14,702 nucleotides of DNA, from positions 1 through 14,702 of the forward strand of contig JBDZWC010000073.1 of NCBI GenBank assembly GCA_040256005.1. Direction: 5' to 3'. The DNA comes from Deinococcaceae bacterium. GTDB taxonomy: Bacteria > Deinococcota > Deinococci > Deinococcales > Trueperaceae. Shown here in pieces: positions 1,687 to 14,174 of the stretch (its first letter is position 1; each line of letters starts with the position of its first letter). The notes beneath the pieces were generated by a model. The model did no database searches. It worked only from the letters and a program-made list of their open reading frames with translations, and had not been told where the DNA came from. The position numbers and the translations under genes were made by a program.

Positions 1687-4644
1687 CTAGGGCGCCTGGA
1701 TAACGACCTGGCCTGGCTGCTCGACGATCTTGGCCTTGATCGCGCTCAACTGACCGGGTGTAGCCCCGCTTCCAACAACAGCATCGAACGTGTTGTTGGC
1801 CGTGGCTTCAATCAGGTTGTCGGTGACGTTGGCAATGTACACCTCAACGCTACCTTCGAACGTGCTGTTCTCGATGGGGGTGACCTTGGGGTCGCCGTAT
1901 GCCAGGATCCCGGCGGCTTCGTCTCCACCCGTGTACTCGATGTCGGCGAACGTCACACCGTCGATGGTCCCGACCACGTTGCCGCCGGCACGGTCCCAGA
2001 ACACGATCCCGTTCTGGGCGATCTGATCCGTAGCCCCCGCCCCGGTAAACGTTCCGCCGGAGACGTGAACCGTGATGTCTCCACCGTCTCCAGCGACTTC
2101 TGAGCCGTTGCCGGTCACGATGTCGATGCCGTTCTTCTGCCAGCCAGAGAAATCGGTGTCGACCACGGCGAGTAGGGTCGACTCACCGGAGCCGGCGTCC
2201 ACAGCCAGGGATTGACCGGTCTGAGCGCCATTTTCGTCGAGCCCTGCCCCGACGAAGTCAACCCTCTCGATGTGGCCTTCGGAAGCGTTCCAGAGAACCG
2301 CAGCGTTGATGTCTGAGTCCCACTGGAGGGCGGTCGTGTCGATCGTCAAGTCCTCGAGAACCACGCCTGAGGAGTGGTCGACGAGTGCTGCAACCAGGAC
2401 GTTCGTGCGGTACTTGTGGTCGACTCCGCTGGCGAAGGCAGCCGTGGGTGCGAGGACCGTACCCGCTCCTTCGCCGCTGATCTCGAGACCGTTCGCGTTG
2501 CTGATGGCGAACACTGCATCGAAAGTGCCCGCGGTCAGGTTCACGGTCGCGTTCGGTGCCGCGTTGTCGATGGCCGCCTGGATGCTCATCCCCTCGCCTA
2601 CGTGGAACACGTTCTCGTAGGTGATGGCGCCGATGACGTCGTTCCCGAGCTCGCGGATGTAGGCCGAGCCGTTGGTCGGCACGCACAGGGTCAGAGCGAG
2701 GTGGACGGCTTCGGGAAGCGTCCTGGTCAGGTCGATGAAGTCCTCACCGCGGCCCGGCGACGTCGCTTCCGCGCAGAAGCTGTGAACGCCACGCTGCTGA
2801 GGCGCGAAGACCGCGTAACTGAAGCCTTCTAAGCGCAGGCCGCTGATCTGCTTGTCGAACTCGTTGTCGATGTAAACGGCCCTGCCGGCGTTTCCTCCGT
2901 TGTCCTCGAAGATGCTGGCGGCATCCACGTCGACGTCGGTGACTCCGTTGATGGTCCCGGTGTTCGTGCTGAACAGCCCGAGCCCGCCCCAGTTGTTGCG
3001 CAGCGTGTGTACGCCTTGAAGGACGACATCGTCGACCCCAGAGAGAGCGATGCCCACGCCGTCGGTATCGTTGCCGTCAGCGGTCACATTCCTGAGGACC
3101 GCGCCGGCCACGGTGTTCAGGTCGATCTCGCTGCGACCGTAGTTGGTCACCGTCACGTCCTCGATCGTCAGGCCGTTGAGCCCGTCGTTCCGGAACGCCT
3201 TGATGCCATAGTTGCCGCCCACGCCGGCGTCGGGTCCGACGAGCGTGAAGGCCTTGAGCGTGACGCCGTCGGCGGTCACGTTCATGCCCCAGCTGTTCGT
3301 GCCGGTCGTCTTGATCGTCACGACGCCTTCGCCCGCGCCGAGCAGCGTGAGCGGCTTGTGGATGGCGTAGCCGGCTGCTTCGTACTCGCCGGCCATTACG
3401 AAGACCGTGCCACCTTCGGCCACGGCCGCGATGCCCTGCTCGATCGTCGGGAACGGACGCGCCTCGCTGCCGTCAGCGTTTGCCGCGGAGGCATCGTCGT
3501 CGACGTAAACGAAGCCAGGGAACGGAGTGGTGTCGCTGGACTCGTTGCCGGAGCTATCGGTAGCGACGACGGTCAGCTCGCCCGTCGGGGCGACCGTCAG
3601 GTCGGCGTGCCAGTTGGTCGTGCCGGGGGCGAAGATGACCTGTGCGATGTCTGGCCCCACCTGATCAGGGTCGGTCGTCGCGACAAGTATGGGGCCGTCA
3701 TAGACGGTCACCGACGCGATGCCCGCGTTGTCGTGCGCGGCTCCGTAGACACGGTTGAGGATGGAGTCGTACTGCAGCGAGACGGTGGGAGCCTCGAGGT
3801 CGACGGTGATGTCGCCATTGAACGGAGCCGGGCAGGCGATCTCGTAGGTTCCGTCGCCCTGGATGGCCACGTCACCCGGCTCGATATCGGGCCCGTCAGC
3901 GACGAGACCGGACACGGTGCCGGCAACGGTCACCTCGCTGCACGTTTCGTCCACCGTGATGCGGATGCCTCGCTTGCTGGTTGCCTCCACGGCACCGCCA
4001 ACGACCGCTCCGAAGCTGACCTCGAAGTCGGACATCGGTACCTGCAGGTACGAGCCCGGGAAGTCCGCGTTCCCGTTCGCCATGACGACGAGCATCAGGT
4101 CGAGCGTCGACCCTGGCATGGCGTAGTTCGTCGGGAAGCGGGGAACGAGCACGGCGCCGTCGGCCTGGTCTATGACAGAGGCGAGCTTCACCAGGACGGT
4201 CGTAGCGTCGATGACGTTGCGGTCCTGGGAGTCGTACGCGATGACGTTCAAGCTCCCTGCGTCGAAGCCCTTCGACTCGAAGGTGTACGGGTTGCCGGCA
4301 GCGGGGAGGTTGACCTGAGCGCTCGCGTCGGCCGGCGTTAGCTCTATCGTGTTGACGCCTCCGCCCACCTGCGCCGTGTACTCGCCGGCGCTCAGGACGA
4401 ACTCGACCTGCGTGCCGTCCTTGTCGAACACCGCCACCTGGACGTTGTCCACGGCGATGCCGCCGTCGTCAGGCGAGTAAGGCGCACCAGCCGCCTGGAT
4501 ACCCGACGCGTCGATCGCATCCTCCAGGCCAACGGTCAGCGTCACGTAGCCGCCTGGAACGTTGGCCACTTGCTGACCGCACGCGGCCAGTAGTGCACCG
4601 AGGGCTACTAACGCCCCCACGAGTAGCTTGCGTGAACCTCGCAT
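1687..4644 (-). CDS. Large lipoprotein with Ig-like domains and right-handed parallel beta-helix (pectin-lyase-like) repeats
   Basis: AAGGAG SD upstream; signal peptide with lipobox LAAC. Ig-like segment (DLEAPTVSL...DNAGIASVTVY...ATDSSGN). Beta-helix cap motif (VYVD...DGSEARPFPTIEQGIAAVAEGGTVFVMAGEY) and a second cap (SIQAAIDNAAPNATVNLTAGTF). N/G/T/V-rich coils. Confidence 0.85.
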   Translation of the reverse strand: MRGSRKLLVGALVALGALLAACGQQVANVPGGYVTLTVGLEDAIDASGIQAAGAPYSPDDGGIAVDNVQVAVFDKDGTQVEFVLSAGEYTAQVGGGVNTIELTPADASAQVNLPAAGNPYTFESKGFDAGSLNVIAYDSQDRNVIDATTVLVKLASVIDQADGAVLVPRFPTNYAMPGSTLDLMLVVMANGNADFPGSYLQVPMSDFEVSFGAVVGGAVEATSKRGIRITVDETCSEVTVAGTVSGLVADGPDIEPGDVAIQGDGTYEIACPAPFNGDITVDLEAPTVSLQYDSILNRVYGAAHDNAGIASVTVYDGPILVATTDPDQVGPDIAQVIFAPGTTNWHADLTVAPTGELTVVATDSSGNESSDTTPFPGFVYVDDDASAANADGSEARPFPTIEQGIAAVAEGGTVFVMAGEYEAAGYAIHKPLTLLGAGEGVVTIKTTGTNSWGMNVTADGVTLKAFTLVGPDAGVGGNYGIKAFRNDGLNGLTIEDVTVTNYGRSEIDLNTVAGAVLRNVTADGNDTDGVGIALSGVDDVVLQGVHTLRNNWGGLGLFSTNTGTINGVTDVDVDAASIFEDNGGNAGRAVYIDNEFDKQISGLRLEGFSYAVFAPQQRGVHSFCAEATSPGRGEDFIDLTRTLPEAVHLALTLCVPTNGSAYIRELGNDVIGAITYENVFHVGEGMSIQAAIDNAAPNATVNLTAGTFDAVFAISNANGLEISGEGAGTVLAPTAAFASGVDHKYRTNVLVAALVDHSSGVVLEDLTIDTTALQWDSDINAAVLWNASEGHIERVDFVGAGLDENGAQTGQSLAVDAGSGESTLLAVVDTDFSGWQKNGIDIVTGNGSEVAGDGGDITVHVSGGTFTGAGATDQIAQNGIVFWDRAGGNVVGTIDGVTFADIEYTGGDEAAGILAYGDPKVTPIENSTFEGSVEVYIANVTDNLIEATANNTFDAVVGSGATPGQLSAIKAKIVEQPGQVVIQAP

Positions 4645-4990: not shown

Positions 4991-5881
4991 TCAGCCTCCC
5001 TCGACCACCTTGCGGATCGCCTCCTCGAAGCGAGCCATGTCCCCGTGAAACCGGATCCCCCGCTCCTGCTCCTCGTCGATGGGGCCCACGATCACGCGGG
5101 AGGACCTCAGCACCGATCCTCCGTCGACCGCCTCGATGGTCGAAGTCGTATCCATGATCGTTCCGGGGTGCAGCCGGGACCGCACGGCGTATCCGCGTGG
5201 CGGGTCCCAGCTCGTCACCAAGCCGTAGTAGTGTCCGGCGCCGTCGCCCCAATCCTCGTACTGTGCGCCGCCGACCCGCGGCTCGAACACGATGCGCTTG
5301 GTGCGGGCCTCGCCGTAGGTGTACGGGAACCACTTTAGGATCTCATCGGGGTCCGTCATCACGCGGAAGACTCGCTCCGGGGTCGCCGCGAAGCGCAACT
5401 CGTTCTCCAGGCGCAGCACCCTTACCGCCTCCAGCGCGCCCGCCTTCTTGTCGTCTATCGCCATCGTCTCCTCCTCCAGGTGCCGCTTGAGCGAGGTCAT
5501 CTCCATCGCCGCGGCGTCCGCATAGCGGTTCACCCAACGTTCGTAGAAGGCTCGGAGGGATGCGGCGTTGATGTGGTTGTAGCGATGACGACCGCGTCTC
5601 TCGATGATCACGATCCCGGCGTCCGAGAGCACGTCCAGGTGCTGCATCACAGCGAAACGAGAGATGTCTGGCAGCTGCTCAGCCAGCTCTCCGGTCGTCT
5701 TCGGACCCTGCTTGAGCTCGTCGAGGATCCTTCGCCGCCACGGATTGGCGAACGCACGCCAGAACGAGTCTGGGTGTGGGTCGCTAGGGGTGCGGTCCCT
5801 CGCCGGTCCCGTCGCGGACTTCGAAGCCCGCCCGCCGGAGCCAGAGCGCGCCTCTACGGCCGAGGCGGAGGCTGTTGACAT
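4991..5881 (-). CDS. ArsR/SmtB-family HTH regulator fused to a C-terminal SRPBCC (AHSA1/START-like) domain
   Basis: ArsR motif (AFANPWRRRILDELKQGPKTTGELAEQL...ISRFAVMQHLDVLSDAGIV...RGRHRYNH). SRPBCC motif (FAATPERVFRVMTDPDEILKWF...FEPRVGG...GLVTSWDPP). Confidence 0.9.
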   Translation of the reverse strand: MSTASASAVEARSGSGGRASKSATGPARDRTPSDPHPDSFWRAFANPWRRRILDELKQGPKTTGELAEQLPDISRFAVMQHLDVLSDAGIVIIERRGRHRYNHINAASLRAFYERWVNRYADAAAMEMTSLKRHLEEETMAIDDKKAGALEAVRVLRLENELRFAATPERVFRVMTDPDEILKWFPYTYGEARTKRIVFEPRVGGAQYEDWGDGAGHYYGLVTSWDPPRGYAVRSRLHPGTIMDTTSTIEAVDGGSVLRSSRVIVGPIDEEQERGIRFHGDMARFEEAIRKVVEGG

Positions 5882-6042: not shown

Positions 6043-6387
6043 ATGGCGACAGACAGGCATCAGGCCCACGGGAAGGTCTGGAGAGGCGAAGAGGGAGACG
6101 AGCTTCTCGACGACGCGATCGACGACCGCGACGCCACCCCAGACGACCCGGACGACAAAGAAGACCGAGGACGCGCCTATTACGCCGATGGCATCACAGT
6201 GTACTTCAACGCCCGCAAGTGCTGGCATACCGGCGTGTGCCTCCGAGGCCTTCCCGAGGTCTTCAAACTGGGACGGCGCCCTTGGGTCCGCGCCGACCTG
6301 GACACTCCCGAACGCACAGCGGCACTGATCGATGTGTGCCCCTCGAAGGCGCTCAGCTACGACTTGAAGGCGGCCGAGCCGGGCTGA
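6043..6387 (+). CDS. YjdI-like divergent 4Fe-4S mono-cluster (Fer4_19-type) protein
   Basis: GGGAGG SD before ATG 6043. Motifs GITVYFNARKCWHTGVC...PEVF...RRPWV...CPSKALSY. Acidic N-terminal extension. Confidence 0.85.
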   Translation: MATDRHQAHGKVWRGEEGDELLDDAIDDRDATPDDPDDKEDRGRAYYADGITVYFNARKCWHTGVCLRGLPEVFKLGRRPWVRADLDTPERTAALIDVCPSKALSYDLKAAEPG

Positions 6388-6522: not shown

Positions 6523-6598
<76 letters not shown>

Positions 6599-8327: not shown

Positions 8328-8363
8328 CTGACGCAAGCTGCCGAGCCCTAACACGCGTGTAAC
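8328..8363 (+). promoter_or_regulatory. Phased direct repeats (CTGAC, CTGCC, CTAAC, GTAAC), candidate OmpR-family binding site
   Basis: Pentamers start at 8328, 8338, 8348 and 8359 (10, 10 and 11 bp apart), just upstream of an operon that encodes an OmpR-family regulator. Confidence 0.4.
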
Positions 8364-8395: not shown

Positions 8396-8695
8396 ATGGA
8401 GGCAAGGAAGGTACTGATCGTCGCGCTCGTCGCGCTCGCCTCGTTCGCCCTGGGCTACCTGATCCTCGGTCTGGCGCAGCCCGCTTCCCCCTCGACTCCA
8501 AGCGTCGGCGAACCGTCCGTCGTCGCTGGCGAGGGGCAGGTGCTGTTCGTAGACGAGAGCACGCTCTTCCGAGGCGGGGAAGAAGAGGAGTACTCCGACC
8601 AGGGGTACGAGGACGACGAGGGCGAAGAAGAGCACGAAGACGATGACCACGAGCAGCTTCGCTACGACCGGAGAGGCGAGGAGGACGATGACTGA
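8396..8695 (+). CDS. Small membrane-anchored or secreted protein with an Asp/Glu/His-rich tail
   Basis: GGAGG SD at 8386-8390. N-terminal hydrophobic helix. 23 of the last 38 residues are D/E. Stop overlaps the next start. Confidence 0.75.
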   Translation: MEARKVLIVALVALASFALGYLILGLAQPASPSTPSVGEPSVVAGEGQVLFVDESTLFRGGEEEEYSDQGYEDDEGEEEHEDDDHEQLRYDRRGEEDDD

Positions 8696-8903
8696 CCGCA
8701 AGAGGTTCGATGCCCGCTCCGCCAGCAGCATCCTGCTGGTCATCGTCCTGGGACTGGCTGCGGGCACGGCGACGCGGAGCTTCGCCCCTGCTGCCCCGGT
8801 CATCGCCTCGCCGGTCGCGCTCTCGGCGCGCGACTCGACGCCGCGCGTGATCTTCGTGCGCGGCGGCGCATCGCGGCCGGTCGCGAGGACGAGGGCGAGC
8901 TGA
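8688..8903 (+). CDS. 71 aa single-TM peptide ending ...RPVARTRAS, function unknown
   Basis: ATG 8688 follows GAGGAGG. Overlaps the upstream stop, and its TGA overlaps the ApbE ATG (TGATG). One hydrophobic helix (SILLVIVLGLAAG). Confidence 0.7.
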   Translation: MTDRKRFDARSASSILLVIVLGLAAGTATRSFAPAAPVIASPVALSARDSTPRVIFVRGGASRPVARTRAS

Positions 8904-9736
8904 TGCTGCTTCGCGCCATGGGGACGGAGGTGCGGATCGAGGGACGCGGCGCGGAGGACGCCGCAGGCGAGATCCTCCGCCTCGAGGCCATGCTCACCCG
9001 CTTCGCGCCGTCGCCCCTGACGCGGCTGAACGAGGAGGGCTGCCTGCGGGACCCGCCCCCGGACCTGGTGGCCGCGCTGCGCCACGCCCTCGCCGTCGCC
9101 GATCTGACCGGCGGGCTCGTGACCCCGACGGTGCTGGACGCGCTCGAGCACGCCGGCTACCGGCGAAGCTGGCCGGCGGTCGACCCGCCCCTCCCGGGTC
9201 CCCCGCCGATGGTGCCCGCGACGGCCGGCATCGAGGTGAACGAGGGGCGCATCGGCCTGCCTGCGGGCGTGCGGCTGGATCTCGGGGGGACGGCGAAGAG
9301 CTGGATCGCCGAGCGCGCCGCCCGGCTCATGCCCGGCGAGGCCGTCCTCGACGCCGGCGGCGACGTCCTCATCCGCCGCCGCCGTCCCAGCCCCGTCGAG
9401 GTCGTCGACCCGCTGGGCGGTGAGCCGCTCACGCTCGTCATTCCTCCCGGGCGCTGGGGCGTCGCGACCTCCAGCGTCATGCGGCGCGCCTGGGCGGGGG
9501 CGCACCACCTCATCGACCCGCGCACGGGCCTGCCCAGTCGCGCGCCGTGGCTGCAGGCGACCGCGGTCGCGAAGACGGTGACGTGGGCGGAGGTCACCAG
9601 CAAGCTGCTCCTGCTGGGCGAGCAGCCGCCAGGCGTCGCCATGACCGTGGCCTTCGACGCCGATGGCCGAGCCTGGTCGGGGACCGGCCCGGAAGGGAGT
9701 CGTCGTGACGCGGACGGCGCCGCACGTCTCGCCTGA
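8903..9736 (+). CDS. apbE: FAD:protein FMN transferase (ApbE family), no signal peptide
   Basis: Motifs AMGT, LTRF..SPLTRLN, TGGLVTPTV, LDLGGTAKSW, DAGGD, VATS and HHLIDPRTG. Confidence 0.92.
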   Translation: MLLRAMGTEVRIEGRGAEDAAGEILRLEAMLTRFAPSPLTRLNEEGCLRDPPPDLVAALRHALAVADLTGGLVTPTVLDALEHAGYRRSWPAVDPPLPGPPPMVPATAGIEVNEGRIGLPAGVRLDLGGTAKSWIAERAARLMPGEAVLDAGGDVLIRRRRPSPVEVVDPLGGEPLTLVIPPGRWGVATSSVMRRAWAGAHHLIDPRTGLPSRAPWLQATAVAKTVTWAEVTSKLLLLGEQPPGVAMTVAFDADGRAWSGTGPEGSRRDADGAARLA

Positions 9737-10325
9737 GCTGATGGCCGGGCTGCTCGTGGCCGGCGTGGCGGGGCTGTGGCTGCTCGCCGCTGCCGGGGCG
9801 GCTCCCGCCGGCCTCGCCTGGACGTTCAACCGTCTGGCGGGCGTGGCAGCGTACGCGTTGCTGACGCTGTCGGTTGCGCTGGGAGCCCTCATGGGCAGCC
9901 GCCACGTCCCACCCTGGCTGGCCAAGCCGCTGCAGTACGGCTGGCACGGGCTGCTGAGCGGCTTCGCGCTCGCGACGACCGCCGCCCACGTGGCGTTCAG
10001 CGTCGTTGATGCCGAGTACCCCCAACCGCTCGCCGGGGTACTCGTGCCGGGGCTCGCCACGTACGCGCCGCTCGCGCTGGGGCTCGGCACGCTGGCCTCG
10101 TACGCCCTCGCGGCGGTCTACCTGTCGTTCGCCCGCCGCAGGTGCCTCGCGCCGCGCCTGTGGCGCACCCTGCACCTGCTCGCCTACCCGGCGTTCGCCC
10201 TCGCGACGCTGCACGGCCTGTTCGCCGGCAGCGACCGGCTCGCCTGGCTCTACCCGCCGGCGTTAGCGCTCGTGGCCGCGGCGACGGCGCTGCGCTTCCT
10301 CGAGCGCCCTAGACTCCTGACGTGA
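9705..10325 (+). CDS. Ferric reductase-like transmembrane (MsrQ-like) heme b protein
   Basis: GTG 9705 after GGAAGGGAG (alternative ATG 9741). R.AGVAAY.LL..SV.LG motif. His pairs H-x13-H (WHG...AHV) and H-x12-H (WRTLHLLAY...TLHG). About 6 TM helices. No FAD/NAD-binding domain. Confidence 0.88.
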
Positions 10326-10981
10326 GGCTCCTGCTGGTCGAGGACGACGAGCGGATCGGCCAACCGCTCGTCCAGGCGCTCACCGAGGCCGGCTACCGGG
10401 TGACCTGGGCGCGCACCGGACCTGACGGGCTCGTCGAGGGCCGCTCCGGCGAGTACGGGATCATCGTGCTCGACGTGATGCTGCCGGGCCTCGACGGCTT
10501 CGCGCTGGCCAGGGAGCTGCGCGGCCTGGGCGTCGCGACCCCCACCGTCTTCCTCACGGCGCGCGACGAGGTCGAGGACCGCGTGGAGGGGCTCGACCTC
10601 GGCGGGGACGCCTACCTGGTCAAGCCGTTCGAGCTCGCCGAGCTGCTGGCGACCCTGCGCGCCGTCGCCCGCCGCGGCGAGAGAGCCACCAGCGCCCGGC
10701 ATGCCTTCGGCGACGGCGAGGGGCTGATCGACGCCCGCACGCGCCAGGTCTGGTGGGGAGGTCGAGAGGTCATGCTCACCGCCCGCGAGTACGAGCTCCT
10801 CGAGGTCCTTGCCCTCACGCCGGGGCGTTGGTTCCGCCGCGAGGAGCTCGTCGACCGCGTCTGGGGGCCCGCCTTCGAGGGCGACTCGCGGGTGGTCGAC
10901 GTCTACGTGCGCTACCTGCGGCGCAAGCTGGGCGACGTGGCGGTCCGCAGCGCGCGCGGCAGGGGCTACTCGGTGGGATGA
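10322..10981 (+). CDS. OmpR/PhoB-family response regulator
   Basis: LLVEDD, phospho-acceptor in LDVMLPG, FLTARD, KPF. Winged helix LTAREYELL...[13 protein letters not shown]...RGRGY. GTGA overlap with the upstream stop. Confidence 0.95.
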
Positions 10982-12321
10982 CGCTCAGGCGCCGCTTCGC
11001 CGCCATCGTCGCCGCCCAAACGGCGGTCTTGCTCGTGCTGCTGTCGGTGCTGCTGTTCTTCGTGCTGCAGCGGTTCCTCGTCGCCGGCGAGGAGGAGCGC
11101 CTGCAGCTAGCCTTCTCGGCGCTCGACCTCGACGAGCTCGAGATCGAGCACGGCCGCGTGGCCGGCCAGGCGCTCGAACCCGTGCTAGGCAGCGACTTCC
11201 CTGCGGGCGTGCACGCGCGCGTGGTGGCGGACGGCGAGGTCCTGAGCGCCACCGACGGCTTCCCGGCGCTGCGAATCGACCTGCCGCCGGGGTTCAGCCA
11301 CGCGCAGGGCCACCAGCTGCTGGTGCGCGGCGTGAGGGAGGAGGGCCGCGATCTCGTCGTGCAGCTCGCTGCCGACACGCGAGGCATCCGCGAGCCGCTC
11401 GACGCCTACCTGCGGGCCCTGGCGGTCACGGTGCCGCTGATGATCGGCATCGCCGCCTTGAGCGCTGGCGCGGTCGCCAGCCGCCTGCTGGCGCCGTTGA
11501 AGGCGCTGGAGCGCTCGGCGCGCGAGATCGCCGCGGGCGGCGGCGCCCGGCTGCGCACGCCGATCCCGGGCGCCGACAAGGCGGACGAGCTCGGCAGCCT
11601 GGCCAGGACGCTCCAGGACTCCTTCGACAGGCTGGCGGCGGCGCGTGAGCGCGAGCGGGACTTCACGAGGGCCGCGGCGCACGACCTGCGCTCGCCTCTC
11701 ACGGCCCTGCGCACCAGGTTGCAGGCGACCCTGGCGCGCGAGCGCGACGCGCCGGAGTATGCGAGGCAGCTGCGCGAACTCGAGGTCGACGTCGCGCGCA
11801 TGTCCGAGCTGGCCGAGCACCTACTGATGCTCGCGCGGGATGCAGACGAGGCGCTGACGCTCGCGCCGCTCGACCTCTCGGCGTTGGCGCGCGAGCGCGT
11901 CGCGAGGGCGCGGACCTCGCACCCCGGCATGGACATCGACACCAAGGGGGATGCGGAGGTGGAGGTCGAGGGCGACGCGCGCCTGCTCGCTCACGTGCTC
12001 GACAACCTCATCGACAACGCCGCCCGGCACGGCGCCGGATCGCCGGTGACCGTCACGGTCCGCCGAGTCGGGGGGAGCGCTTGGCTCGCGGTGCGCGACG
12101 AAGGCCCCGGGGTCGACCCGGCGGAGCTGCCGCGGTTGACCCGCCCCTTCCACCAGGCCGACGCCGCGCGCTCCAGCGGCGGCAGCGGCTTGGGCCTGGC
12201 GATCGTCGCGCGCATCGCCGAGCTCCACGGCGCTGACCTGCGCCTCGCCAACGCCCTGCCGGCGGGGTTCGAGGCGTCGCTGAGGCTCCCGCTGGCCGCG
12301 CCCGGACCGGCGGCCGGCTGA
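10978..12321 (+). CDS. HAMP-domain sensor histidine kinase
   Basis: ATG 10978 overlaps the regulator stop (ATGA). Two TM helices and a HAMP domain (PLKAL...DELGSLA). H box [11 protein letters not shown] box NLIDNA, G1 DEGPG, G2 GSGLGL. Confidence 0.95.
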
Positions 12322-12346
12322 GTCCCGTAGGAGGAGATGATCGAGC

Positions 12347-13492
12347 ATGCCGAACCGCGACGCGCGCACCAGTCCCGACTCCCAGCGCTACCTGGAGTTC
12401 TGGCGGGACGAGCGCGAGAGCGAGTACCTCTACCGCTCCCTGGCCGAGGCCGAGGAGGACGCCGGCCTGCGCAGCGTCTATGCGCGTCTCGCCGACGCAG
12501 AGGCGCGGCACGCGCGGACTTGGGAGGAGGAGCTGACGACACTCGGGGTGCAGCCGGGAGCGTTCCGGCCGTCCTGGCGCGCCCGCACGCTCGCCTGGTT
12601 GGCGCGCCGCTTCTCCCCTGCCCTCGTCGCCCCCACGCTCAGCGCCCAGGAGGCGCGCGACGGCGAGAGGTACCTGGGCGTGCCCGCCGCCGCGGGAACC
12701 GAGCTGCCGGCCGAGGAGCGCTCCCACGCCCGCCTCCTGCGGGAGATCGCCAGGTCCACGCCCGGCGGCCTCAGCGGCGGCGCCGTGGCGCGCATCGAGG
12801 GCCGGCATCGCGCCGGAAGCGGCAACGCGCTGCGCGCCGCGGTGCTCGGCGCCAGCGACGGCCTGATCTCTAACTTCAGCCTCGTCATGGGCGTCGCCGG
12901 CGCCGCCCCCGACTCGAGCGCCGTCCTCGTCGCCGGCCTCGCCGGCCTGCTGGCCGGCGCGTTCTCCATGGCGCTGGGCGAGTGGATCTCGGTGCAGAGC
13001 TCCCGCGAGCTCTACGAACGGCAGATCGGCATCGAGCGCGCCGAGCTCGCGGCGCACCCCCAGGAGGAGGCAGAGGAGCTCGCGCTCATCTACCAGGCGA
13101 AGGGCCTCCCCGAGGAGCAGGCGCGCGCCCTCGCCGAGCGGCTGCTCAGCGACCCCGGCACGGCCCTCGACACCTTGAGCCGCGAGGAGCTGGGCATCGA
13201 CCCTGGCGAGCTCGGTGGCTCGGCGTGGGAGGCGGCGTTCGCCTCGTTCGGCTTCTTCGCCGTGGGGGCCGTGCTGCCCGTCCTGCCCTTCCTCTTCGGC
13301 GCGGGCTCCTCCGCCGTCCTCCTCAGCGTCGGCATCAGCACGCTCGGGCTCTTCGGCATCGGCGCCGCCATCACACTCCAGACCGGCAGGAGCGTCTGGA
13401 GCTCCGGCGGCCGCCAAGTGGCCATCGGGCTCGCCGCCGCAGCCATCACCTACCTCGTGGGCCGCCTCCTCGGCGTGGCCGTGGCGGGGTGA
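12347..13492 (+). CDS. VIT1/CCC1 family metal transporter with an N-terminal ferritin/rubrerythrin-like domain (MbfA-like architecture)
   Basis: N-terminal DE..S..LY..LA, EARH and ERSH ExxH motifs. VIT1 core LRAAVLGASDGLISN, GAFSMALGEWISVQS, EELALIYQAKG and SREELG. Confidence 0.93.
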   Translation: MPNRDARTSPDSQRYLEFWRDERESEYLYRSLAEAEEDAGLRSVYARLADAEARHARTWEEELTTLGVQPGAFRPSWRARTLAWLARRFSPALVAPTLSAQEARDGERYLGVPAAAGTELPAEERSHARLLREIARSTPGGLSGGAVARIEGRHRAGSGNALRAAVLGASDGLISNFSLVMGVAGAAPDSSAVLVAGLAGLLAGAFSMALGEWISVQSSRELYERQIGIERAELAAHPQEEAEELALIYQAKGLPEEQARALAERLLSDPGTALDTLSREELGIDPGELGGSAWEAAFASFGFFAVGAVLPVLPFLFGAGSSAVLLSVGISTLGLFGIGAAITLQTGRSVWSSGGRQVAIGLAAAAITYLVGRLLGVAVAG

Positions 13493-13769: not shown

Positions 13770-14174
13770 ATGACAGCCGCACGCCTGACAAGAGTTGCAG
13801 TCGTCATGGCCACGATCGCCCTGCTTCCCCTGAACGCCATGGCCCAGCGTGGTGACGCCGCGGAACCGGTGGCCCCCCTGCGCGCCGACACGCGCTACTT
13901 CACCGTCGGCAGCCACTTCTTCGCCCCCGCCGACATCACCGTCGAGACGGGCAGGCCGATGCACATAGTCGTCGTCAACGGCAGCCCGGACCACATGCAC
14001 GACTTCGTGATCATCTCGCCCACCGGCGGGTTGGTCGGCGGCCGCGCTGCGGTGATCGAGCCAGGGCAGCGCGCCGAGTTCGACTGGACGCCGCTCGCCC
14101 CCGGCATCTACCGAGTCCTCTGCGCCGTGTGCCCCGCTGAGGAGGGGATGCTTGCTCTCGTGCACGTCCACTGA
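13770..14174 (+). CDS. Secreted cupredoxin-domain protein with an atypical ligand loop
   Basis: Sec signal ending AMA. Cupredoxin strand motifs F.P..ITV..G, N...HMHDF, IEPGQ, PGIY. C-terminal loop CAVCPAEEGM. Confidence 0.85.
   Translation: MTAARLTRVAVVMATIALLPLNAMAQRGDAAEPVAPLRADTRYFTVGSHFFAPADITVETGRPMHIVVVNGSPDHMHDFVIISPTGGLVGGRAAVIEPGQRAEFDWTPLAPGIYRVLCAVCPAEEGMLALVHVH

Follow-up and report, generated by a model that had tools for sequence, protein, structure and literature searches.

Gene clusters that pair the flavin transferase ApbE with an MsrQ-like cytochrome b, with or without a VIT1 protein, are already catalogued. Meheust 2021 (PMC8238504) counts 1797 MsrQ-like flavinylation clusters, which typically include a gene for a flavin mononucleotide (FMN)-binding protein, and 153 of which include VIT1. 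Genes without a signal peptide were removed from that survey, which also reports 670 genomes with ApbE but no known substrate and states that further substrates await identification. Huang 2024 (PMC11334425) adds Flavodoxin_4, FMN_red and DUF4405; the flavinylated FMN_red described there is modified at sites in a C-terminal stretch without structure, and the portion covered contains no small tail peptide. A review of ApbE (PMC12052999) gives the target motif as D-x-x-[S/T]-G-A-[S/T], with only minor effects of replacing the Asp, and notes that tags perform best at a terminus, that some ApbEs are cytosolic and that the enzyme has a Ser-His-Asp triad. Terminal flavin tags are confirmed in a preprint (bioRxiv, 10.1101/2025.05.17.650163). 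Here we describe an apbE locus on a complete 14.7-kb contig (JBDZWC010000073.1, 14,702 nucleotides, hereafter the window) of a Deinococcaceae bacterium (GCA_040256005.1; genome 3.1 Mb, 96.8% complete). Its operon encodes two small membrane peptides from open reading frames (ORFs) that we call ORF1 and ORF2, followed by ApbE, a cytochrome b, a two-component system and a VIT1 protein. We lean, with modest confidence, towards a model in which the leaderless ApbE attaches FMN to the C-terminal Ser of ORF2, so that this peptide, held at the membrane and without a fold of its own, carries flavin for the two-haem cytochrome b. What is new here is probably the ORF2 tail peptide as a candidate substrate class.

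A small membrane peptide with a conserved C-terminal motif

The ORF2 gene is called in public assemblies, where it carries neither a name nor a Pfam assignment, and in our searches ORF1 and ORF2 matched no Pfam or NCBIfam family. The sole folded part of ORF2 in an AlphaFold2 model (pTM, predicted template modelling score, 0.34) is a helix at residues 9-32. The peptide ends PVARTRAS-stop, and this tail is Arg-rich. Across 38 aligned family members (alignment A1), mean column identity is 18%, yet the terminal Ser is present in at least 90% of sequences and the consensus ending is T-R-x-S. The ORF directly upstream of apbE shares this type of ending in related loci. Among 103 such direct-upstream tails, position -4 is T in 72 and S in 31, and the last motif residue is S in 101 and T in 2; 78 tails stop at that residue and 15 carry one extra Arg. 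TRSS, TRGS, SGGS, TRAS and TGGS are the commonest endings, and the motif grades into SGAS, TGAS and SGGS. The [S/T]-x-x-[S/T] core is both conserved and linked to apbE. An excess of Lys and Arg lies before the helix in 34 of the 38 peptides and after it in one, which predicts an N-in/C-out orientation. Three unnamed 'hypothetical protein' clusters in the ESM Atlas, at 0.89-0.90, are a lead only.

The terminal Ser is written in both of its codon families (TCN in 55 and AGY in 23 of 78 tails), and [T/S]xxS ends only 10 of the 1893 genes in this genome and 3 of its 628 translationally coupled genes, so the tail is no by-product of gene overlap. The spread of codons, gaps to the next gene of -4 to +37 nt and loci with swapped gene order together rule out an origin in either gene overlap or a ribosome-binding site.

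We asked how often such a peptide accompanies apbE using a strict rule: a membrane-helix ORF that ends between -200 and +40 nt of apbE in [T/S]xxS. In groups that include a few duplicate loci, the rule was satisfied at 0/30 canonical ApbE loci of Deinococcota vs 22/39 lower-scoring ones, at 20/28 Actinomycetota loci and at 9/29 Chloroflexota loci, the last rising to 20/29 when up to three trailing residues are permitted. Background was low, with 1 match at 1500 random positions and 7 upstream of 1362 long ORFs in this genome (25/1362 under the relaxed rule). An extended survey took in 40 more Actinomycetota loci of lower rank and excluded 10 duplicates and 40 wide re-fetches; its hydrophobicity threshold was cut from 1.4 to 1.2 after near-misses were seen. 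Of its 199 loci, 12 had too little DNA upstream to be used and 187 were scored, all of them related loci found with profiles of this ApbE clade. A cytochrome gene lies within 2.5 kb of apbE in 117/187, and 112 of these 117 have a tail peptide, 103 directly upstream and 9 elsewhere in the cluster. Two of the five that lack one by rule have a Ser-ending tail on inspection. The 70 ApbE loci without a cytochrome gave five direct matches and one distant match, and 64 had none. Tail peptides occur in Deinococcota, Actinomycetota and Chloroflexota. Within Deinococcota they are present at every one of the 28 non-redundant cytochrome loci, counting the window; 4 of these 28 have the gene order peptide-cytb-apbE and still keep the tail. 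One survey row, L121, comes from an unpublished genome (G343), and no claim depends on it. In a tree of ApbE sequences, the window's enzyme falls in a 29-row Deinococcota group with a support of 100, in which every member has both tail and cytochrome. The conserved core of the locus is three genes, ORF2-apbE-cytb.

Several loci depart from the usual layout. At L003 there are two pairs of acidic-tail protein and peptide, one ending GGN and the other TRTS, together with ferredoxin-sized and FAD-reductase (FAD, flavin adenine dinucleotide) genes, and L183 has two divergent peptide-apbE-cytb units. Long peptides at L069:6984-7553 (-) and L116:2364-3068 (-) seemingly join an ORF1-like acidic stretch and an ORF2-like tail in one frame. 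Cys-bearing variants, TCGTHPC and SGTVTCY, take the place of the terminal Ser at L117 and L233. Two transposase-like ORFs separate the cytochrome gene from apbE on a plasmid of Deinococcus radiomollis (L002:4032-4977), where the peptide and both genes are intact.

The transferase and the cytochrome

The genome encodes exactly one ApbE, whose nearest named relatives are from Trueperaceae and Deinococcus. Its profile matches 13 solved ApbE sequences; D126, K132, G153-D154, S190, R195, H201-H202 and D205 are invariant in alignment A2, and the FAD-binding motifs DLGGxxK, GGD, ATS and HxxDP are invariant or nearly so in 31 ApbE sequences. Judged by eye, the protein begins at the first strand without a hydrophobic leader, as do the other clade members examined. 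With no signal peptide by this judgement and no FMN_bind, the locus falls outside the entry filter of Meheust 2021, a secreted or lipidated ApbE or an FMN_bind domain. The helix that reads ADxxxT in solved ApbEs is AEVTSK (AE-x-x-x-K) in this enzyme, and tails accompany 105/137 enzymes of the non-D...T type vs 1/46 of the D...T type. We also asked whether ApbE Lys234 co-varies with the tail, and no clear pattern emerged: the Lys is absent at 24 loci that have a tail, and 28 loci with Lys234, Thermus-type loci among them, lack a direct tail, so this residue is neither required for a tail nor enough to predict one. Another leaderless type of ApbE, without a tail peptide, occurs in a family with thermophile-sized genomes (L052, L070, L072, L075-L077, L079, L082 and L083); its gene is divergent from a two-component system and is followed by two genes that by eye resemble DUF2271 and PepSY-type membrane proteins.

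A complex of ApbE, ORF2, FAD and Mg predicted with ESMFold2 scored 0.92 (best of three controls, 0.01), with a pLDDT (predicted local distance difference test) of 47 for the partner. At least 46% of contacts were common to the runs. The interface places ORF2 residues 51-61 and 63-71 against ApbE 148-195 and 218-222, in the C-terminal domain, and the best contacts belong to T68, which meets ApbE 153, 155, 187-189 and 220. The tail is accordingly predicted to bind ApbE near the GGD and ATSS motifs. The score may stem from the model's memory of a similar complex.

Three His of the cytochrome (H81, H95 and H157) never vary among 36 sequences, and H170 almost never does. The protein has six long helices and no NAD(P)H domain (NAD, nicotinamide adenine dinucleotide), and its model is confident (pLDDT 94). 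The match to Ferric_reduct (E 3e-05, 24.5 bits) stays below the cut-off of 28, which three relatives pass. Foldseek returned no row at E<=0.001, the best being weak rows for SpNOX, STEAP4/2/1 and NOX5. No NAD-binding family was found on the 13 cytochromes scanned, the longest included, and no cytosolic NAD-binding domain or NuoF-like donor in the window. Since the cytochrome has no NAD-binding domain, its electron donor should lie outside the core; by analogy with MsrQ, the source may be a quinone or a soluble reductase. Residues W39, R43, P115, P122, G175 and D177 are conserved and, judging from charge, are on the outer face. A separate, higher-scoring PF01794 gene is found elsewhere in the genome, on contig C174.

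Flavin carrier, anchor or cytoplasmic cofactor

The earlier note on this DNA proposed a flavinylated small membrane peptide as the cytochrome's partner, with two tiny peptides as candidates. We retain this for one of them specifically: ORF2, through its C-terminal T-R-A-S, is a likely substrate judging from sequence and models. FMN would be attached covalently to S71, taken as the counterpart of the final Ser or Thr in [S/T]GA[S/T]. The tail would be modified in the cytoplasm and then exported, facing outward in keeping with the positive-inside rule. The quinone pool, or a soluble reductase whose gene lies elsewhere, could supply electrons; these would move through the two haems to the tethered FMN, which ORF2 would display at the outer haem and which would hand them on to some envelope acceptor.

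A number of observations weigh against this flavin-carrier model. ORF2 does not match the canonical D-x-x-[S/T]-G-A-[S/T], and canonical [S/T]GAS is found in only 3/103 tails. No tail ending at Ser has the upstream Asp of that motif (position -6), 53 tails have Arg at the canonical Gly position, 25/103 have residues beyond the motif, and the Deinococcus homologue L057 ends in Ala. The 110 tail+cytochrome rows all lie inside one 127-row ApbE subtree (support 80 in a midpoint-rooted drawing) that is separate from 52 canonical enzymes, and the survey counts therefore reflect one inherited module and not independent origins. S190 and H202 of the Ser-His-Asp triad are kept, but alignment puts Glu230 at the place of the Asp, where some relatives have Asn, so ApbE activity is not assured. 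The mark that the complex score passes, reached by 116/157 solved and 2/215 mismatched pairs, is calibrated only approximately here, as we used our own alignments and added ligands. With T68 making the best contacts, H202 outside the listed interface and no coordinates, the prediction shows neither that S71 faces the FAD nor which hydroxyl is attacked. A cytoplasmic enzyme and an outward tail demand an unproven order of events, and Tat (twin-arginine translocation) export or hitchhiking of ORF2 was rejected: TatC is encoded, but RRx[F/L] is present in only 2/38 peptides. The core encodes neither an electron donor nor an acceptor. Finally, the model rests on sequence and structure prediction.

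Some of these points would suit a tail that stays unmodified and serves as a non-covalent anchor or regulator, keeping the leaderless, FAD-bound ApbE at the membrane beside the cytochrome. The complex prediction shows binding only, over about 20 residues, and ApbE has no anchor of its own; the non-canonical tail motif and the altered D...T helix, with its strong association with tails, point the same way. However, the tail keeps two hydroxyl residues at exactly the spacing of [S/T]GA[S/T], the last of them Ser or Thr in 103/103 by rule and Ser in 101, and passes into SGAS and TGAS, while the catalytic Ser and His of ApbE are invariant. We consider an unmodified tail unlikely.

Another possibility is that the tail is flavinylated yet remains cytoplasmic, where the tethered FMN would replace the missing FAD/NAD(P)H domain and feed the inner haem in a split-NOX-like arrangement. 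Such a role would fit a leaderless ApbE, the Arg-rich tail of the window's peptide and a cytochrome that resembles NOX and STEAP membrane domains without their flavin domain. It is quite unlikely in light of the charge bias of 34/38 peptides, which predicts the opposite orientation, and of the six conserved cytochrome residues named above, which charge would place on the outer face.

The wider operon and the question of iron

We re-read the ORF list and junctions and found seven co-oriented ORFs with overlaps as the earlier note gave them (Table 1). The junctions are, in order, ATGACTGA, TGATG, a 32-nt overlap (GTG at 9705), GTGA, ATGA and a 25-nt gap before VIT1.

Table 1. Features of the operon, in window positions
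Feature	Position	Strand	Description
TAAC-N7-TAAC direct repeat	8349..8363	+	11-bp period; 33-47 nt 5' of ORF1 start
ORF1	8396..8695	+	99 aa; N-terminal membrane helix; acidic His-bearing tail ending EEDDD
ORF2	8688..8903	+	71 aa; basic N-terminus, membrane helix, disordered linker, C-terminal T-R-A-S; likely ApbE substrate (sequence and models)
T68-R69-A70-S71 codons	8889..8900	+	Candidate flavin-attachment motif, extreme C-terminus of ORF2
apbE	8903..9736	+	Flavin transferase, 277 aa; PF02424, E 4.8e-27
Cytochrome b	9705..10325	+	Stand-alone, MsrQ/ferric-reductase-like, 206 aa; Ferric_reduct 24.3-24.5 bits, cut-off 28
Response regulator	10322..10981	+	OmpR family; Response_reg + Trans_reg_C
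Sensor histidine kinase	10978..12321	+	HAMP, HisKA, HATPase_c
VIT1/CCC1 protein	12347..13492	+	381 aa; N-terminal ferritin-like extension; PF01988, E 5.8e-68

Gene calls in 77 loci of about +/-5 kb found apbE in 75, the cytochrome in 71, regulator and kinase in 46, Nramp in 5 and VIT1 in 2. Neighbourhood conservation, which had been proposed as a check on the operon, thus extends to ORF2-apbE-cytb and not to the seven genes as a unit: ORF1 and the two-component system are frequent companions of the core, and VIT1 is seldom present.

The two linked VIT1 proteins are only 32% identical. Some VIT1 is encoded in 20/31 Deinococcota genomes and in 0/3 other genomes of the window's genus, and in G164, of the same genus, ORF1-ORF2-apbE-cytb-regulator-kinase is intact without it. 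A VIT-like gene lies beside apbE in this genome (G000) and in G090, and otherwise only in G227, with a weak match. The window's VIT1 matches plant VIT1 (6iu3) over residues 158-369 and is extended at its N-terminus by 150 residues that match Rubrerythrin only weakly (E 0.006). This layout is that of MbfA, described among iron efflux systems (PMC7762939), which likewise combines an N-terminal ferritin-like part with a VIT1 domain; in the window, by contrast, the ferritin-like part is matched only weakly and the gene is not a conserved operon member.

The earlier note tied the operon to iron homeostasis and had the peptide pass electrons to metal. As a dedicated iron unit, the conduit would reduce Fe(III) and VIT1 would move Fe(II). 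This concerns physiological role, a separate axis, and could coexist with the flavin-carrier model in this lineage. VIT1 starts directly after the kinase, 153/1797 published MsrQ-like clusters contain VIT1 (PMC8238504), a Deinococcus plasmid has the order Nramp-VIT1-peptide-apbE-cytb, and Nramp is nearby in 5/77 loci. The ORF1 tail is acidic and His-bearing, and the best models for the two-component system are of heavy-metal type but below cut-off (for the regulator, the best NCBIfam row is a heavy-metal regulator model at 179 bits against a cut-off of 279). Yet with VIT1 at 2/77 loci the iron link is weak; the two proteins are divergent, no other genome of the genus has VIT1, and MbfA-type proteins are described as exporters (PMC7762939), a misfit with uptake after reduction. 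We therefore rejected a conserved linkage of VIT1 to the conduit, and neither the tie to iron homeostasis nor the electron step from peptide to metal is supported. A dedicated iron unit has, in our estimate, a slim chance of being right. Because some loci, a minority, have metal genes nearby, a metal role is possible, though it is not what the core is conserved for. VIT1 accompanies the core only now and then, as a passenger, and the iron reading should no longer be the default.

Downstream of VIT1 the window encodes a secreted-looking cupredoxin (13770-14174, +; PF13473) with no counterpart in the other neighbourhoods compared. Contigs of two public runs join the VIT1 end to the cupredoxin gene with a shorter spacer. 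Record 26 of public run X9 (1156 nt) matches only from 12342 (letters 905-1156), a weak hint, from a single contig, that something other than the kinase may precede VIT1 in a close relative.

Known substrates in the genome

The absence of an FMN_bind-like protein, noted earlier for the locus, extends to the genome: a profile search found none in the whole genome (the control gave matches in 4/14 genomes), nor in any of the 31 Deinococcota genomes searched. DUF2271, NqrB/RnfD and Flavodoxin_4 were also absent from the genome in profile searches with positive controls. The genome has two FMN_red genes, and a six-frame scan with a restricted D-x-x-[S/T]-G-A-[S/T] pattern gave four matches, none on the FMN_red contigs. 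An ABC (ATP-binding cassette) solute-binding-type protein (C203:17387-19054, -) contains DVISGAT, a perfect canonical motif, probably by chance. It is very improbable that the target of ApbE is a conventional substrate encoded elsewhere and that the cell can do without the small ORFs: the DVISGAT protein, the two FMN_red genes, an assembly short of complete, a DUF3570 search made uninformative by a silent control and an FMN_bind gene elsewhere in 2/5 non-Deinococcota genomes tested leave some room for it, but the peptide is retained in 28/28 Deinococcota loci, FMN_bind occurs in 0/31 genomes and the motif scan had no match on the FMN_red contigs.

Regulation and accessory genes

The TAAC-N7-TAAC repeat is exact in 9/11 related upstream regions and has one mismatch in the other 2/11. 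An 11-bp direct repeat at such a position fits an OmpR-family activator, and we propose it as a candidate binding site through which the adjacent two-component system may activate the operon. To this extent, and indirectly, the repeat favours the earlier suggestion that the operon is self-regulated. In Deinococcota the repeat occurs at 12/15 loci with a two-component system vs 3/13 without, and in Actinomycetota at 0/7; because the presence of the system largely tracks family, this association is a lead. Some of the regulator-kinase pairs counted within about 5 kb in 46/77 loci are possibly non-cognate. The genome holds six exact copies of the repeat vs 0.9 expected. The five others are on contigs C19, C112, C150, C177 and C181, several beside secreted or lipoprotein-like genes, and their neighbours indicate no common function. 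A sigma-70 promoter scan gave 0 sites, and no terminator was found at the operon ends. Contigs from four public runs, small in share, gave no sign of transcription or of a joint transcript across the operon.

Many related loci have an ORF1 counterpart ahead of the peptide, with a membrane helix and an acidic tail that frequently closes with DD; in Chloroflexota the slot is taken by a PepSY protein ending DD. ORF1 is accessory to the core.

Elsewhere in the window we observed a 985-aa beta-helix lipoprotein-like protein (1687-4644, -), an ArsR-AHSA1 regulator (4991-5881, -), a divergent 4Fe-4S protein (6043-6387, +; Fer4_19) and a tRNA-Lys(CTT) at 6523-6598 (+). GC content is 63-68% left of this tRNA and 70-76% from about 7000 onward (genome mean 68.9%), possibly an integration boundary.

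Comparison with known systems

More tentatively, the surveyed loci could represent a widespread class of ApbE substrate: natural fold-less flavin-tag peptides of Deinococcota, Actinomycetota and Chloroflexota. These would receive FMN on the final residue of a non-canonical T-R-x-S from a leaderless ApbE clade that is dedicated to them and whose catalytic helix is rewired. Modification would take place in the cytoplasm, after which the peptide would be presented on the outside and serve a stand-alone cytochrome b as a swinging-arm electron carrier. If true, 'hypothetical proteins' of 70-150 aa ending [T/S]xxS would be the substrates of a large ApbE clade in three phyla, the recognition motif of ApbE would be broader than D-x-x-[S/T]-G-A-[S/T], and the pair would offer an orthogonal enzyme and tag for protein labelling. 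We found no natural fold-less tail substrate of ApbE in the literature searched, which left out most subscription papers. Truepera, Deinococcus and Solirubrobacter had 0 matches in a small part of the Meheust 2021 supplements that does not include the cluster table. As that survey removed genes without signal peptides and the window's cytochrome is below the Pfam cut-off, such clusters may have been missed there, and leaderless ApbEs like this one may be missing from the 670-genome count.

The published MsrQ-like flavinylation clusters (PMC8238504, PMC11334425) share with this locus apbE beside a PF01794-like bis-His cytochrome b, an occasional VIT1 and a wide presence in Actinomycetota. Unlike the window's operon, which has neither, they typically include an FMN_bind gene and, in many cases, an NAD-binding domain. 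The cytochrome has the four-His, two-haem membrane domain of MsrPQ and the SpNOX/STEAP superfamily, in a system without MsrP and without a dehydrogenase domain. Known substrates (FMN_bind, NqrB/RnfD, DUF2271, DUF3570, Flavodoxin_4 and FMN_red) resemble ORF2 in their Ser/Thr-x-x-Ser/Thr acceptor motif; all of them have a folded domain, whereas ORF2 consists of a helix, a linker and a terminal motif, usually T-R-x-S, that lacks the Asp. Closest in form are the engineered flavin-tag and ADD-tag (PMC12052999; bioRxiv 2025.05.17.650163), which resemble the ORF2 tail as short unstructured terminal peptides and which suffice for ApbE. Those tags are synthetic, with a canonical DxxxGAT and residues after the acceptor, while ORF2 is the product of a natural gene whose putative acceptor is, across its relatives, mostly the last residue.

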